Shown piece by piece: positions 4,911-64,000 of a stretch of 64,000 nt of DNA. The notes under the pieces are model-generated. The model was not told the origin of the DNA. It saw only the letters and a list, made by a program, of their open reading frames with translations, and ran no database searches. Positions within the stretch are counted from its first letter, which is position 1; each line of letters begins with the position of its first letter. Location of the stretch: the NCBI GenBank assembly GCA_947085505.1, contig CAMTWI010000004.1, positions 1,800 to 65,799 on the forward strand. The letters run 5' to 3'. The DNA is from an uncultured bacterium (GTDB lineage: Bacteria; Patescibacteriota; Minisyncoccia; Phycocordibacterales; Phycocordibacteraceae). The position numbers were made by a program, and so were the translations under genes.

Positions 4911-6080
4911 CTAGTACAACGTTGGCTTGTTGCGATCCTTCAAGAATGCAGCAATGGTTTCCGGGGCTGAGAGCCCCGGGTACGCCACTGATCCATTCAC
5001 GAACATTCGCATCGGCACGCCTGCTCGCTCGAGCATCTCAAAGCCCGCACGACCAGTTGGGTTCAGGTTGTCCGTTATGAATCGAAGGCTCTCCCCAACA
5101 TGCCGTAGTCCGAAACGAGAATCATTACGATCGAGATACGGCGCAAGTGGGGAATCACCCACAAGCAGGAAGGTAGCGCGTAGTGCACGCCCGGCGTAGC
5201 ACCCAGCCCGAAGGTCAGGAACTTGGTCACCAGCGATGAGGAGATCCTCGATCATCTCTCCACGGGAGAGAATTGCGAGTGTCTCGTCCACCATTTCTTC
5301 CTTCGATGCATACCGCGGCATGAGATAGAACTGAAACTTTTCGATAGTTTCATCGCTCTCGTCCACAATCCGCAAGTTTTGGTGAATGTTTCCAAACTCC
5401 TCAACGAGCGAATTATTGTTCTCAACCGTAATACCGGAGAGGTTTGCAATCTGTTGCAAACCAAGTAGGGCTGTTTGGATATCGTTCTTAACGCGATCTT
5501 TGATTGCCCGATTCTGGAACTGGAACTGAATGCGATACTCAAGAGGCATCACGTCCGTTCTCGCTGCCCGGTAGTTCTCTTCGAACTCGATGGGCGCGAG
5601 ATAGTCCCGGTAGTCTTCCAGGAGTGGATTACGAATGAGTCGTATGAAGTTGAGCGCATGCGCGCGCCAATTAATGCCAAGCCGTCGCTTGTATGAGCGA
5701 CGTTCTCGGTACCACTCCTCAGGCTGTAGGAAATAACAGCCGGTTCCCATACTCATGATCGCTTTCGGATCCGTGAACGGCACACGACATGCAATCGTTT
5801 CCGGCTTCAGGTAGTATCGTCTTCCCGGCGTTCCCCCAAGGAGTGGGCGAGGCCGGCTGAAGCCGTTATGAACTGATGTTGTGTGGTATTCGTTCGACAT
5901 TAGCATTTCCGCGGTTTGCGCTGAGGCAACCGTGAATGTGCCGTTTGCGTCGACGTAATCACGCACGAATTGGGCGGCGGCAAGCGCTTCAGGCGCTGCC
6001 GTGCCATCCTTCATGGCCTCGGTCATTAAGGTGCCGTCGACATCAAAGACGCCAACATACCCCAAGCTCGGCGTCTCCAT
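4911..6080 (-). CDS. HAD-superfamily hydrolase-like protein with large cap insertion
   Basis: 389 aa. N-terminal FDVDGTL (HAD motif I) and C-terminal LLIAGDQVPD (motif IV-like). Substrate unknown. Confidence 0.5.
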   Translation of the reverse strand: METPSLGYVGVFDVDGTLMTEAMKDGTAAPEALAAAQFVRDYVDANGTFTVASAQTAEMLMSNEYHTTSVHNGFSRPRPLLGGTPGRRYYLKPETIACRVPFTDPKAIMSMGTGCYFLQPEEWYRERRSYKRRLGINWRAHALNFIRLIRNPLLEDYRDYLAPIEFEENYRAARTDVMPLEYRIQFQFQNRAIKDRVKNDIQTALLGLQQIANLSGITVENNNSLVEEFGNIHQNLRIVDESDETIEKFQFYLMPRYASKEEMVDETLAILSRGEMIEDLLIAGDQVPDLRAGCYAGRALRATFLLVGDSPLAPYLDRNDSRFGLRHVGESLRFITDNLNPTGRAGFEMLERAGVPMRMFVNGSVAYPGLSAPETIAAFLKDRNKPTLY

Positions 6081-61215: not shown

Positions 61216-61286
61216 TGGGAGATCGTCTAATGGTAGGACAGCGGCCTTTGAAGCCGTGAATCTAGGTTCGATCCCTAGTCTCCCAG
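61216..61286 (+). tRNA. tRNA-Gln (UUG)
   Basis: TGGGAGATCGTCTAATGGTAGGACAGCGGCCTTTGAAGCCGTGAATCTAGGTTCGATCCCTAGTCTCCCAG. Anticodon loop CTTTGAA. Confidence 0.9.
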
Positions 61287-62017: not shown

Positions 62018-62046
62018 GTTCCAACATCGTCCCAGATTGCCAGCAA
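62018..62046 (+). repeat. 29-nt pseudo-tRNA-Gln-3'-end repeat, copy 1
   Basis: GTTCCAACATCGTCCCAGATTGCCAGCAA, preceded by CAAAAAG. TATAGA hexamer lies 34 nt from the repeat start. Confidence 0.8.
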
Positions 62047-62057
62047 TAAAGTATAGA

Positions 62058-62318
62058 AAAATCCCCCAGAGCTACTTGCGCGCGGCTCATGGGGGAGTTG
62101 TTGGCTCTATAAAGAGTTTTTGTTCGCTGCTTCTGACACACATGCCTGCATGTCTGAGGGGCGGGGTATGATTTACTTTTATCTCCAGCTGTACCACATA
62201 GGCTGGCTAGTGGACTTGCTCTCCCTTTTTTGGAAGAGATATCCTGCGGTCCATCCCTGACCGTGTTCTTTTATCTGAGATTAACATACTTTAATTAATC
62301 TATACTGTCAATAGCATA
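62058..62318 (+). pseudogene. Non-coding module resembling a skeletonised 23S rRNA domain I segment
   Basis: No credible ORF. Colinear short blocks match recalled E. coli 23S: UCCCCCAG.AGC..GGGGAG; ACACA..AUGC..CAUG.CUG.G; GAG.GGGCGGG; AUAUCCUG; GGUCCAUCC; CUGACCGUG. Confidence 0.35.
62283..62311 (-). promoter_or_regulatory. Sigma70-like promoter pointing leftward (antisense to the module, toward the MazG-like gene)
   Basis: Minus strand: TATTGACA-N17-TATGTT. Confidence 0.4.
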
Positions 62319-62347
62319 GTTCCAACATCGTCCCAGACTGCCAGCAA
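62319..62347 (+). repeat. 29-nt pseudo-tRNA-Gln-3'-end repeat, copy 2
   Basis: GTTCCAACATCGTCCCAGACTGCCAGCAA. TGCTATACT (extended -10) begins 32 nt from the repeat start. ATG of the next gene is at 62376. Confidence 0.8.
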
Positions 62348-62375
62348 TACTGCTATACTCTTTTTGTAAACACAT

Positions 62376-62798
62376 ATGAAATGGTTCGAGACAAAGGAGA
62401 TAAGAAAAGTAGAGACTTTGTCCGAGAGGCAAGCAGCTTTTCTTCGTGAGCCTTCCATAGCTATCTTTGGTCCGTTCAACGTACTATTTAGGGGACATTT
62501 TGATTTCCTATTAACCGGTTTAGCGATTTACATTGCTCTTGGGTTTGTGCTTACGTCTCTTTTTTCTGTACCGATCGAGAGCCCGCTACTGCTGTTAGCT
62601 TCCTACGTGCCTTATGTAGTATTGGCGTACTTTGGAGTTAGACATGGTCGCAGGCTGTCCTGGAACCGCAGAGAGTGGAAGGACTTTAAGGAATTCCAGG
62701 AATCCGAGGGTGTGTGGGTGTTCTGGGGGTGGATAGGCTTAGGAGCACTGCTGCTATGGCTTGCTGTCGATACGTATACTTATATCCAGACGCTCTAG
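62376..62798 (+). CDS. Hypothetical multi-pass membrane protein
   Basis: 140 aa. Three predicted TM helices (LLTGLAIYIALGFVLTSLF, LLLLASYVPYVVLAYFGV, VFWGWIGLGALLLWLAV). Confidence 0.5.
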   Translation: MKWFETKEIRKVETLSERQAAFLREPSIAIFGPFNVLFRGHFDFLLTGLAIYIALGFVLTSLFSVPIESPLLLLASYVPYVVLAYFGVRHGRRLSWNRREWKDFKEFQESEGVWVFWGWIGLGALLLWLAVDTYTYIQTL

Positions 62799-62840
62799 GG
62801 ATATTTTAAGGCTACAAGTGCCAAGGTTCGTGTATTCTTA

Positions 62841-62868
62841 TTGACTTTTTCTAGAAACAGAGTATTGT
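62841..62868 (+). promoter_or_regulatory. Sigma70-like promoter of the high-GC lipoprotein gene
   Basis: TATTGACT-N16-TATTGT, then SD AAAGGAG 8 nt before ATG 62911. Confidence 0.5.
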
Positions 62869-62910
62869 ATCCAACAACTGACACACCGTCAGAAGCAAAG
62901 GAGTTCCTTG

Positions 62911-63360
62911 ATGCGTGCATTACTCGTTACGATTCTTGTGTTGAGCGCGTGCGCCATCCACGGCCCCACAAACGCACAAACGCTTTCGGCAACCCCGATC
63001 GAGCCCCGCGGCCAATCGCACTACCAACAGCACGAGTGCCGCGTGAGCCACGGCTATGCCGTGTGCTACGGCATCAGATATCGGATTATCGAGCGAAGAC
63101 CGGACGGACTCGTCCTTCAGCGGGACCGTTCGCCCGGATACGAGTCAGCCTTTCGACCCAGTCGACCCTACGAGCCGCCTCGTTATGATCCCCAGCATCG
63201 CGCTTTCGGGTCGGACCTCTGCAACGGCAGGCCCTGCCGGGGTCCAGACAGGAGCCCGAACTTCCAGGAGCGGCGCTTCTCCTCCGAAAGGGTCCGAGAA
63301 TGTGGCCGCCTCTCTTCGGAAGAGCTGATGCGGCGACAGAGACGCAACGATTGTCCCTAA
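62911..63360 (+). CDS. Putative secreted lipoprotein, Arg/Pro-rich (high-GC ORFan)
   Basis: ATG at 62911 (the track starts at TTG 62908). Signal peptide with lipobox-like LVLSAC. GC-rich. Followed by a strong terminator. Confidence 0.55.
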   Translation: MRALLVTILVLSACAIHGPTNAQTLSATPIEPRGQSHYQQHECRVSHGYAVCYGIRYRIIERRPDGLVLQRDRSPGYESAFRPSRPYEPPRYDPQHRAFGSDLCNGRPCRGPDRSPNFQERRFSSERVRECGRLSSEELMRRQRRNDCP

Positions 63361-63380
63361 GAGGACAAAACGAAAAGAAG

Positions 63381-63411
63381 GGCGGTCCGGGTTACCTGGA
63401 CCGCCTTTTTT
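63381..63411 (+). terminator. Intrinsic terminator after the lipoprotein gene
   Basis: GGCGGTCC-GGGTTACCT-GGACCGCC followed by TTTTTT. Confidence 0.8.
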
Positions 63412-63454
63412 CCTACGCTATCTAAAAGCTACACTTTGCTTCAATTCGCAAAAG

Positions 63455-63483
63455 GTTCCAACATCGTCCCATACACCCAGCAA
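63455..63483 (+). repeat. 29-nt pseudo-tRNA-Gln-3'-end repeat, copy 3 (variant)
   Basis: GTTCCAACATCGTCCCATACACCCAGCAA, preceded by GCAAAAG. TAAAAT hexamer lies 34 nt from the repeat start. Confidence 0.8.
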
Positions 63484-63495
63484 TGTTCTAAAATC

Positions 63496-63850
63496 TAGCT
63501 CGCACAGCAGAGCAGATTGATACTTTAGAACTATGCATCTGAAAGGCTAGACAAAAAGAAGGTCAGTGCTACGCTACTTATGGATCGGAAATGTCTCCCA
63601 CAGAGAGTACAGGCTCGCTTGGAGGCAGAAAGGGACGAACCCTAACCGACAGCTAAGGTCCTTAAGTTGGTGCTAATAGTGTTTTTCAGAAGCCCCATGC
63701 GGGCCCATGGATGAACGCAAAAACCGAGGGGTTAAGCACACCACCGAAGCTTCGGAGACAAGACCAATCCTGTTAATGGTCAACAAACTGTCTGGTACGA
63801 TCCAACCGAAAAAGCCCGTCGCAGCAATGCGGCGGGCTACTTCTTTATAT
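63496..63850 (+). ncRNA. ~345-nt 23S rRNA domain II-like RNA (mimic or decayed fragment) with its own terminator
   Basis: No ORF. GAAAGGGACGAACCCUAACCGACAGCUAAGGUCC and GGGGUUAAGCACACCACCGAAGCUUCGG match the recalled E. coli 23S H41-region strands. The segment corresponding to H43-H44 is missing. Ends in GCCCGTCGC-AGCAAT-GCGGCGGGC + TACTTCTTT. Confidence 0.5.
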
Positions 63851-63858
63851 ACAAAAAA

Positions 63859-63887
63859 GTTCCAACATCGTCCCAGACAGCCAGCAA
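63859..63887 (+). repeat. 29-nt pseudo-tRNA-Gln-3'-end repeat, copy 4
   Basis: GTTCCAACATCGTCCCAGACAGCCAGCAA, preceded by ACAAAAAA. TAGCAC hexamer lies 34 nt from the repeat start. Confidence 0.8.
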
Positions 63888-63924
63888 ACTCGTAGCACGT
63901 CTCCGCGTTCGCGCGGTTGGATAT

Positions 63925-63952
63925 TTGTCATTCACATTTTCTATGATATAAT
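63925..63952 (+). promoter_or_regulatory. Sigma70-like promoter of the gene starting at 63979
   Basis: TTGTCA-N16-TATAAT. Confidence 0.55.
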
Positions 63953-63978
63953 CATTCCACTATCCCTAGATCCCTTTC

Positions 63979-64000
63979 ATGAACGATTTTAAGAAAAGCA
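63979..64000 (+). CDS. 5' end of an unidentified gene (MNDFKKS..), truncated by the window
   Basis: ATG 27 nt downstream of a TATAAT box. Only 7 codons are visible. Confidence 0.35.

Follow-up and report, generated by a model that had tools for sequence, protein, structure and literature searches.

A stand-alone RNA with the architecture of the 23S rRNA domain II core junction, carried as cassette cargo in a CPR genome

To our knowledge, the mimicry of ribosomal RNA described so far is confined to the leaders of ribosomal-protein (r-protein) operons, where it takes the form of short cis-acting operators. The L20 leaders, namely the Bacillus subtilis infC leader (RF00558), the Escherichia coli rpmI operator and the Deltaproteobacteria L20 motif, mimic the H40/H41 junction of 23S rRNA with its AA dimer and G-C pairs. 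They are cis elements before infC, rpmI or rplT in which only minimal determinants are set on unrelated scaffolds, and those of Bacilli have a terminator behind the mimic (PMC1865079, PMC7247131). In 23S rRNA, bL20 recognises the H40/H41 junction via the AA dimer and consecutive G-C pairs (PMC1865079, PMC7247131), and its globular domain bL20C contacts only nucleotides 991-1163, while the binding site of uL13 comprises H41 and the H41/42 junction (PMC13351717).

Here we describe an RNA encoded near the end of the window, by which we mean the whole 64-kb stretch of DNA that was analysed. Judged by its sequence and predicted fold, the element at 63582-63803 (+) reproduces the five-way junction of 23S domain II on a small scale: H36, H40 and H41 are present, together with a hairpin where H39 would be and an H45-like hairpin. 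Like the L20 leaders, it holds an H40/H41 mimic with the AA dimer and G-C pairs; unlike them, it keeps the whole native junction, adjoins no r-protein gene and has no match to RF00558. As rRNA mimicry is already known as such, the novelty lies in the stand-alone copy of the whole native junction. We consider it very probable that 63582-63803 is a real, selected, rRNA-derived structure. The elements of the locus are as follows.

62018-62046 and 62319-62347 (+): repeat copies 1 and 2 of the same array, enclosing a 270-nt module without an ORF
63449-63483 (+): repeat copy 3, an A-rich lead followed by GTTCCAACATCGTCCCAtACaCCCAGCAA; left cassette boundary
63489-63494 (+): alternative -10 element TAAAAT, whose start would give a ~345-nt transcript
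63548-63575 (+): candidate promoter TAGACA-N16-TACGCT, read by eye and below the promoter-scan threshold; would give a transcript start at ~63582
63582-63587 (+): 5' strand of the closing stem P1, GGAUCG, at the H36 position
63588-63592 (+): joiner GAAA(U); the E. coli counterpart is CUCCCC-GAAA at 812-821
63593-63626 (+): hairpin P2 at the H39 position, with H37-H38 absent; aligned to H39 by Rfam at low confidence
63627-63645 (+): joiner AGAAA, H40 mimic GGG-ACGAA-CCC (63632-63642) and joiner UAA
63646-63674 (+): H41 5' strand CCGA-C-AGCU-AA-GGU, bulge CCUUAAGUUG and GUGCU; holds the AA dimer of the L20 site
63675-63734 (+): 60-nt distal capped stub in place of H42-H44, its 3' end the conserved CGAGGGGUUA
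63735-63755 (+): H41 3' strand AGCAC..ACC-GA-AGCU-UCGG
63756-63793 (+): hairpin P5, abutting H41, at the H45 position
63794-63803 (+): joiner GGUA (compare E. coli 1186-1189) and P1 3' strand CGAUCC
63813-63848 (+): intrinsic terminator AGCCCGUCGC-AGCA-AUGCGGCGGGCU with a U-rich tail
63853-63887 (+): repeat copy 4; right cassette boundary

Pairwise blastn against the E. coli 23S gene rrlH aligned window positions 63638-63667 with 23S positions 983-1012 (25 of 30 identical, E-value 4e-4) and 63728-63755 with 1136-1163 (21 of 28, E-value 0.16). These two best matches, which are colinear, are the second and third of three pairings proposed in an earlier note made from the letters of this DNA. The first pairing, GCAGAGCAGAUUGAU with GUAGAGCACUGUUU, could not be upheld: it is not among the significant matches, lies 5' of the conserved fold and has its counterpart at E. 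coli 859-872 in H38, which is absent from the RNA. When the whole window was cut into 335 overlapping tiles, the tile with the RNA ranked first for single hits (31.1 bits, next 26.8) as well as for colinear pairs (53.7, next 43.6). Within a 301-nt stretch, the Rfam model LSU_rRNA_bacteria matched 63560-63797 at model positions 942-1230 (20.4 bits, E-value 1.9e-4), with H39, H40, H41, H45 and the GGUA joiner in register. The earlier note had named an LSU score as a check on its reading, and the score proved significant though below the gathering score of RF02541 (50 bits); like the 34.3 bits of the second member described below, it represents a significant local match only. A permissive Rfam scan of 63300-64000 (701 nt) had given no LSU match, which was a filter artefact; laxer filters apply at 301 nt. 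Searches by blastn of all complete E. coli genomes and of phages returned nothing, these databases being too large or too unrelated for 30-nt matches. Apart from the sub-threshold LSU match, no Rfam family covers the RNA. RNase P, tmRNA, SRP, 6S and group I introns were judged by eye, gave no Rfam match at E ≤ 10 and were dismissed. In the whole 64-kb window, nine tRNAs are the sole Rfam matches at the gathering threshold, and there is no other rRNA match.

Compared with the domain II core (RF02541; E. coli nt 812-821, 946-1018 and 1144-1195), the RNA has the same order of helices, from H36 through the H39 position, H40 and H41 to H45, and the secondary structure of this LSU junction is present. 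The two have the joiners GAAA, RARA and GGUA in common, the boxes CAGCUAAGGUCC and CACCGAAGCU are near-identical, and covariance models give local matches in both directions. H41 keeps its bulged C, the L20-type AA dimer, the GGU/ACC pairs and the CC(N)UAAG bulge. The differences are that the RNA is a putative stand-alone transcription unit of ~265 nt outside rrn operons, that two large protrusions, the A-site finger (H37-38) and the GTPase-associated centre (GAC, H42-44), are cleanly excised and capped, and that the hairpins standing where H39 and H45 would be are unrelated in sequence to their 23S counterparts. The absence of the GAC helices had been reported before and was borne out by the LSU alignment, in which 32 residues stand for the 95 model positions of H42-H44. 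What had been read as a remnant of GCGUAAUAGCUCAC in H44, namely GCUAAUAG, is aligned by Infernal to UAAGUG of the H41/H42 5' strand instead. The deletion of H37-H38 is a feature that the earlier note overlooked.

We scanned metagenomes for the pattern CAGCTAAGGTCC-N60-90-CACCGAAGC, which consists of two exact conserved boxes at a gap too short for real 23S. This yielded one convincing, divergent relative on contig Ga0172369_10044345 (L128; 35% GC), which matches the Rfam LSU model with 34.3 bits (E-value 4.8e-9). A promoter, TTGCAA-17-TATAAT (254-282, 10/12), and a terminator (494-515) enclose ~233 nt of this contig that hold no ORF. On either side of the L128 RNA is a direct repeat, cTATTCCA[A/C]CACCGCTTTAAT, in the opposite strand; it exists in two copies only, and its common part with the window repeat is just TTCCAACAYCG. 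The remaining pattern matches were due to chance or to true 23S. Metagenome records also include a true 23S gene that lacks H43-44 (L130) and a 23S resembling that of E. coli from which exactly the GAC is deleted (L133).

Minimum free energy folds, computed for each RNA separately, gave the same design (z = -3.25 for the window RNA and -3.18 for L128). In its 5' half are the closing stem P1, the GAAA joiner, hairpin P2, the RARA joiner and the GGG-loop-CCC of H40. The long P4 arm, whose beginning resembles H41, follows with a base of 3-4 bp, a bulged C, AGCU/AGCU, an AA/GA loop, GGU/ACC, the CC(N)UAAG bulge and a short upper helix. Completing the design are a capped stub of 57-60 nt, P5 abutting P4, GGUA and the 3' strand of P1. 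Written as a regular expression, these elements match both RNAs and E. coli 23S 812-1195 in the same order, and the 23S departs from the expression only by extra nucleotides at the H37-38 and H42-44 positions. Sequence changes in the helices are compensatory: in the order E. coli, window RNA and L128, the pairs at the base of H41 read CCGC/GCGG, CCGA/UCGG and CAG/CUG, and those of upper H41 CAUGG/CCAUG, GUGCU/AGCAC and GCUA/UAGC. P1 (CUCCCC/GGGGAG, GGAUCG/CGAUCC and CUUUC/GAAAG) differs wholly in sequence, with its pairing kept. Conversely, a covariance model built from the two small RNAs alone (R1) found E. coli 23S at 977-1163 (31.1 bits, E-value 1.7e-6), as well as the 23S records L130 and L133. 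From the colinear blastn matches, the LSU match, the common architecture, the covariation and this reciprocal match, we conclude that the RNA truly derives its structure from the domain II core, and that a chance match is ruled out. The two members, which are all that are known (n = 2), may stem independently from the 23S of their respective hosts. A fuzzy box search together with model R1 found no third member in ~1 Mb of CPR loci, and viral contigs gave no match to the box pattern at two gap ranges. A match in L037 was discarded because it sits within an ORF.

As the A-site finger and the GAC are both missing, the RNA cannot have a role in a working ribosome, in agreement with the earlier note; the other LSU domains and the setting of an rRNA gene are absent too. 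Three further readings of the locus are extremely improbable: a functional part of a split 23S, an artefact of assembly or chimera formation, and a similarity due to chance. The truncated 23S records from metagenomes speak for this group of readings. Yet a split rRNA is contradicted by the lack of both centres and by close relatives that do without the RNA; an artefact is contradicted by the identical sequence of the RNA in three independent samples; and chance is excluded by the reciprocal covariance-model matches and the structural congruence. Nor is the RNA a recent copy of a normal 23S gene, a possibility raised earlier together with that of an artefact, since neither P2 nor P5 is recognisable as H39 or H45 in the Rfam alignment.

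The signals around the element point to a transcription unit of its own. As noted earlier, the module between repeat copies 3 and 4 has no ORF: the longest frames in 63496-63850 have 36-62 aa, overlap each other and are unsupported, leaving no credible candidate. The clean intrinsic terminator was likewise confirmed, with a stem at 63813-63838 of 11 bp (8 GC), a loop of 4 nt and the tail ACTTCTTTAT. An A-run on its 5' side means that it could also terminate transcription of the minus strand. The promoter is weak or ambiguous and was read by eye. We infer from these signals that the RNA is an independently transcribed, structured ncRNA. It would extend from ~63582 to ~63845 (~265 nt); an upstream start would lengthen it to no more than ~345 nt. 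The ~345 nt given in the earlier note are uncertain, with the conserved fold beginning at 63582 and the promoter-like site at 63548-63575 giving the shorter product.

A terminator behind an H40/H41 mimic is also what the B. subtilis infC leader has (PMC1865079), and the earlier note accordingly considered an L20/L10-type leader, attenuated at the terminator, for a gene beginning at 63979 that might be infC or rplJ. That gene is neither. Followed past the window on Logan contig L003, it encodes a 160-aa CxxC-x17-CxxC zinc-finger (zf) protein (PF23477, zf_Tbcl_2), with HI0933-like and NUDIX genes on its 3' side. It has its own strong 11/12 promoter (TTGTCA-16-TATAAT, 63925-63952), which, like the four repeat copies, had been recognised correctly before, and both this promoter and repeat copy 4 lie between the RNA and the gene. 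The RNA thus does not occupy a 5'-UTR before infC, rpmI, rplT or another r-protein gene. No L20_leader match was found in 63560-63860 at E ≤ 10, and L10_leader likewise has none on the RNA; the only L20_leader match, at 63300-63418 (15.7 bits, E-value 2.9), is the terminator of a neighbouring gene. The 64-kb window contains no L20-like ORF. Behind the L128 RNA come unrelated small ORFs, and the zf genes of relatives lack the RNA. Because of the zf gene with its own promoter, the missing leader match and the missing L20-like ORF, we reject a cis-acting leader as highly improbable.

We next consider the repeats that bound the RNA. The window contains four copies of their 17-nt core, GTTCCAACATCGTCCCA, against 0.2 expected by chance; all of them are on the plus strand within its last 2 kb, with copy 3 at 63455 and copy 4 at 63859. 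The full repeat is a sharp, asymmetric site of ~35 nt, A.AAAG-GTTCCAACATCGTCCCA-gAC.GCCAGCAA, with flanks that are not conserved. The 17-mer was found in more than 120 stretches of GTDB genomes, mostly Patescibacteria of many lineages, and usually in 2-7 copies on the same strand. With mismatches allowed, there are 238 repeat copies delimiting 124 modules with a median length of 573 nt. In most of these modules there is a single small ORF, on one strand or the other, and homology between modules is very rare; the cargo proteins are small enzymes, e.g. methyltransferases, HAD, NUDIX and HIT proteins. The window array itself is flanked by genes for an M10 peptidase, a tRNA, the zf protein and an HI0933-like protein. 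Relatives whose zf genes are 93% and 75% identical have repeats in the same place, with other cargo and no RNA, while a 66% relative has the M10 peptidase, one gene and then zf. Given the repeat bounds and the differing cargo without the RNA in relatives, one cassette of the array, which is strain-variable and lies in a Paceibacteria-like (CPR) genome, carries nothing but the RNA. Since close relatives live without it, any role of the RNA is accessory.

Integron cassettes offer the nearest comparison. They also form arrays of short, highly diverse and mostly single-gene cassettes, with a site recurring in direct orientation between modules and with cargo that varies among close strains. In contrast to the structured attC, the repeat described here is a sharp 35-nt asymmetric site conserved in sequence across phyla, and the cargo, which brings its own promoters and terminators, can point either way. 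No integrase gene is found beside the window array, no attC inverted repeats or IntI are nearby, the repeat start GTTCCAAC does not fit the GTTRRRY core, and no conserved partner of the repeat occurs within ±80-100 nt. Two other explanations of the repeat were discarded. As the 3' end of a minus-strand gene ('LLAVWDDVGTF') it would lack long ORFs, and it has stops directly upstream and some non-synonymous variants. A sigma-70 promoter is contradicted by the lack of -10 and -35 elements at a fixed distance and by cargo in both orientations.

The earlier note also suggested an rRNA pseudogene carried as cargo. The cargo part holds, as the RNA is bounded by repeats and absent from close relatives; the pseudogene part is made less likely by L128, the clean excisions, the kept junction and the compensatory pairs. 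A related view is that a piece of a 23S gene or transcript, once rearranged, was taken up during cassette formation and persists unselected as a non-functional relic. The place of the RNA in a highly plastic array and its absence from close relatives would fit, as would other ORF-less modules in that array, a family of only two members and LSU scores below gathering in both. We nonetheless find such a relic improbable: two very divergent copies have the same two clean, hairpin-capped excisions, and both retain the closing helix, all junction strands and compensatory pairs. Each has its own terminator, that of L128 being joined by a strong promoter, and both RNAs fold markedly better than shuffled sequences.

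If the RNA was selected, what it kept suggests what it may bind. The L20 determinants AGCU-AA-GGU and GGG/CCC are present in both RNAs (criteria from PMC1865079 and PMC7247131). A free RNA of this kind is predicted to present the primary bL20 site at the H40/H41 junction, and probably the uL13 site at H41 and the H41/H42 junction. As a trans-acting decoy or sponge, it could draw off these early-assembly proteins, or whatever other factor recognises the junction, and thereby shift r-protein autoregulation and 50S assembly or shield the real site. A decoy for bL20, and probably uL13, is the best-supported reading because the elements of these proteins are kept and the parts bound by other partners removed; still, we regard a trans-acting protein decoy as an evenly balanced proposition. 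A transcribed rRNA mimic or decoy was also among the earlier suggestions, and as far as sequence goes it is supported by L128, with its promoter, terminator, same excisions and compensatory pairs. Similar modes of action exist elsewhere: 6S RNA mimics open promoter DNA, and CsrB and RsmZ are protein sponges. OLE has been proposed to sequester RpsU (PMC12286853). The proposed mode is the same in that a free RNA copies the natural nucleic-acid target of a protein. Those RNAs are core-genome regulators without sequence or structural relation to the window RNA, which is cassette cargo and whose binding is a prediction.

To find other rRNA-like cargo, all inter-repeat modules were screened against the E. 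coli rrn operon. This revealed a sister cassette in another Patescibacteria MAG (L009), where positions 5320-5407 lie in an ORF-less module of 148 nt between two repeat copies. It is identical to 23S 1050-1109 at 47 of 60 positions and matches Rfam LSU positions 1075-1162, a complete H42-H43-H44 GAC, with 43.1 bits (E-value 3.7e-12). The L009 RNA has compensatory pairs relative to E. coli and its own terminator. The window RNA and L009 together show that cassette cargo includes mimics of two protein-binding sub-domains of domain II. Like the GAC mimics of the L10 leader and L009, the window RNA corresponds to an r-protein-binding sub-domain of 23S domain II outside rRNA, and it is found in the same kind of repeat-bounded cassette as L009; it differs in representing the other sub-domain and specifically lacking the GAC. 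Module 1 of the window (minus strand) was tried as the 'missing' GAC on the strength of a blastn hint (28 of 37, E-value 0.045) and rejected, as Rfam and model R2 (2-5 bits) speak against it. Beyond the cassettes, GAC-like hairpins with covarying H43 stems occur beside tRNA genes in at least 120 phage contigs.

The main rival of the protein-decoy reading is that the RNA might be a protective decoy or substrate mimic whose target is a toxin or enzyme directed at rRNA. It would then take up an effector aimed at 23S domain II, for instance a nuclease or an ADP-ribosyltransferase that competitors, hosts or phages deliver. The GAC is a target of thiopeptides. Moreover, Tre23 ADP-ribosylates H44 of the GAC (PMC8661411). 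This rival would suit an accessory, strain-variable cassette cargo, a sister cassette that mimics a proven toxin target, and the wide occurrence of GAC-like hairpins in phage contigs. For H40, H41 or H45, we know of no toxin, antibiotic or modification enzyme, and none turned up. Besides this lack of a known effector, the neighbouring cassettes contain no toxin or immunity gene (Pfam and PADLOC negative), and the kept features are exactly the protein-binding ones. We therefore consider this rival unlikely, and return to the reading as a decoy for bL20 and uL13.

bL20 and uL13 are two of the five early-essential 50S proteins. A free-standing and possibly mobile whole-junction RNA would, if this reading is true, represent a novel means of adjusting or disrupting ribosome assembly through bL20/uL13 titration, and a testable handle on the poorly understood ribosome biology of CPR. 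A literature search on the repeat sequence, CPR cassette arrays and stand-alone rRNA mimics returned nothing relevant. The mimics of two 23S sub-domains in cassettes and the many GAC-like hairpins of phages suggest a phenomenon beyond one locus. More speculatively, and with more doubt than confidence, we propose that a hitherto undescribed integron-like cassette system of Patescibacteria, built on the 35-nt site, spreads decoy RNAs derived from rRNA domains, which together with the phage GAC mimics would form a general class of trans-acting RNAs that manipulate or protect ribosome assembly and function. The H36-H41/H45 junction with the bL20/uL13 site would be represented by the window RNA and L128, and the GAC with the uL10/uL11 site by L009; conflicts among cells, episymbionts and phages would be the setting in which they are used. 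As for the arrays with their bounding repeats, they may constitute a gene-cassette system that has gone unrecognised across a very large bacterial radiation. Occurrences of the 17-mer in viral contigs and alphaproteobacteria are of another kind, being unrelated single copies in an ORF with motifs that, by eye, resemble those of C5-methyltransferases.

The cassettes in the window are bounded by a sharp, asymmetric 35-nt repeat, A.AAAG GTTCCAACATCGTCCCA gAC.GCCAGCAA (window 62018-63887; loci L006-L125, L134 and L135), whose sequence is conserved in many lineages of Patescibacteria. Cassettes between copies of this repeat are about 570 nt long, mostly carry a single ORF and are highly diverse. 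Their cargo is found in both orientations, and close relatives carry different cargo. No recombinase was seen adjoining the array in the window, and we found no description of the repeat or of its cassette arrays in the literature. Logan unitigs of the window's organism (L002, L003, L004 and L005) break at or beside repeat copies:

L003: begins at copy 2 (window 62319-62347, plus strand)
L004 and L005: both terminate within copy 4 (window 63853-63887, plus strand)

Such breaks are consistent with a repeat that has many copies in the genome or population.

Nine tRNA genes are distributed across window 3606-61286, singly or in small groups. The tRNA gene at 61216-61286 is found a short distance upstream of the cassette array. 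The flanks of matches to the 17-mer core of the repeat show that several arrays of other genomes likewise adjoin tRNA genes.

Some cassettes contain no ORF. One of these, from another Patescibacteria MAG (L009), is 148 nt long and holds a complete, stand-alone mimic of the GTPase-associated centre (GAC) of 23S rRNA:

L009 5320-5407, plus strand: GAC mimic comprising H42-H44
L009 5412-5431: terminator

The LSU match of this RNA scored 43.1 bits (E-value of 3.7e-12). Aligned to E. coli 23S 1050-1109, it agrees at 47 of 60 positions, and compensatory pairs are present.

Module 1, the cassette between repeat copies 1 and 2 of the window, is also devoid of ORFs and has the following features:

Window 62047-62312: module 1, 266 nt, longest ORF below 40 aa
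Window 62311-62283, minus strand: promoter-like site TTGACA-17-TATGTT
Window ~62100-62063, minus strand: hairpin and U-run

Module 1 could encode an sRNA of about 200 nt on the minus strand, or a micro-peptide. It was also considered as a GAC mimic, and this reading was rejected. Further ORF-less cassettes with promoter-like and terminator-like signals measure 147, 226, 243 and 358 nt (L024 6095-6241 and modules of L082 and L096). These are candidate small RNAs; at a threshold of E<1, none of them gave a match to the E. coli rrn operon.

An element resembling the GAC also occurs in viruses. The exact GAC 16-mer GGCTTAGAAGCAGCCA was identified in at least 120 IMG/VR viral contigs (loci L173-L292), and no further 23S similarity was found near it in the contigs listed. 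Its flanks are conserved (GGAnGUU...UCnUUUAAAGAGU), and the outer three base pairs of H43 covary, occurring as AGG/CCU (n = 27), AUG/CAU (n = 27), AAG/CUU (n = 15), CUG/CAG (n = 11) and ACG/CGU (n = 4). A tRNA gene lies within 300 nt of the 16-mer in 53 of 80 cases. The sequence of this putative phage RNA family was not found in the text or supplements of the ROOL/GOLLD/OLE paper.

Two metagenomic 23S records lack the GAC. The first (L130 1249-1435) is a bona fide bacterial 23S gene, scoring 1495 bits, that lacks H43, H44 and the tip of H42. The second is E. coli-like, with a precise deletion between GGCCCAGAC and GUAACGGGG (L133 1-133). Both may be artefacts of chimeric assembly or RT template switching, or they may be genuine GAC-less variants.

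The repeat itself shares sequence with H42. CCCAGACAGCCAG, found in the repeat consensus and in copy 4 (window 63870-63882), exactly reproduces the 5' strand of H42 in E. coli 23S (1043-1055); a 13-nt identity was reached in 12 of 5000 shuffles. Two bases upstream of it is CCAACAUC, whose reverse complement is the adjoining stretch of 23S, 1056-1063. In the commonest repeat variant, the variable position is U, not A. The match may be a coincidence or may reflect a link between the repeat and 23S H42.

Outside the Patescibacteria arrays, the 17-mer and six flanking bases also occur inside a GC-rich ORF (...VVWDDVGTFDGRPWRGAVDIV...), once per genome (L140-L171; also L017, L034 and L081, among others). 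This ORF is carried by alphaproteobacteria and their prophages and, by eye, contains C5-methyltransferase-like motifs. Most probably, its 17-mer has no relation to the repeat and matches by chance, the match having been multiplied by conservation of the gene.
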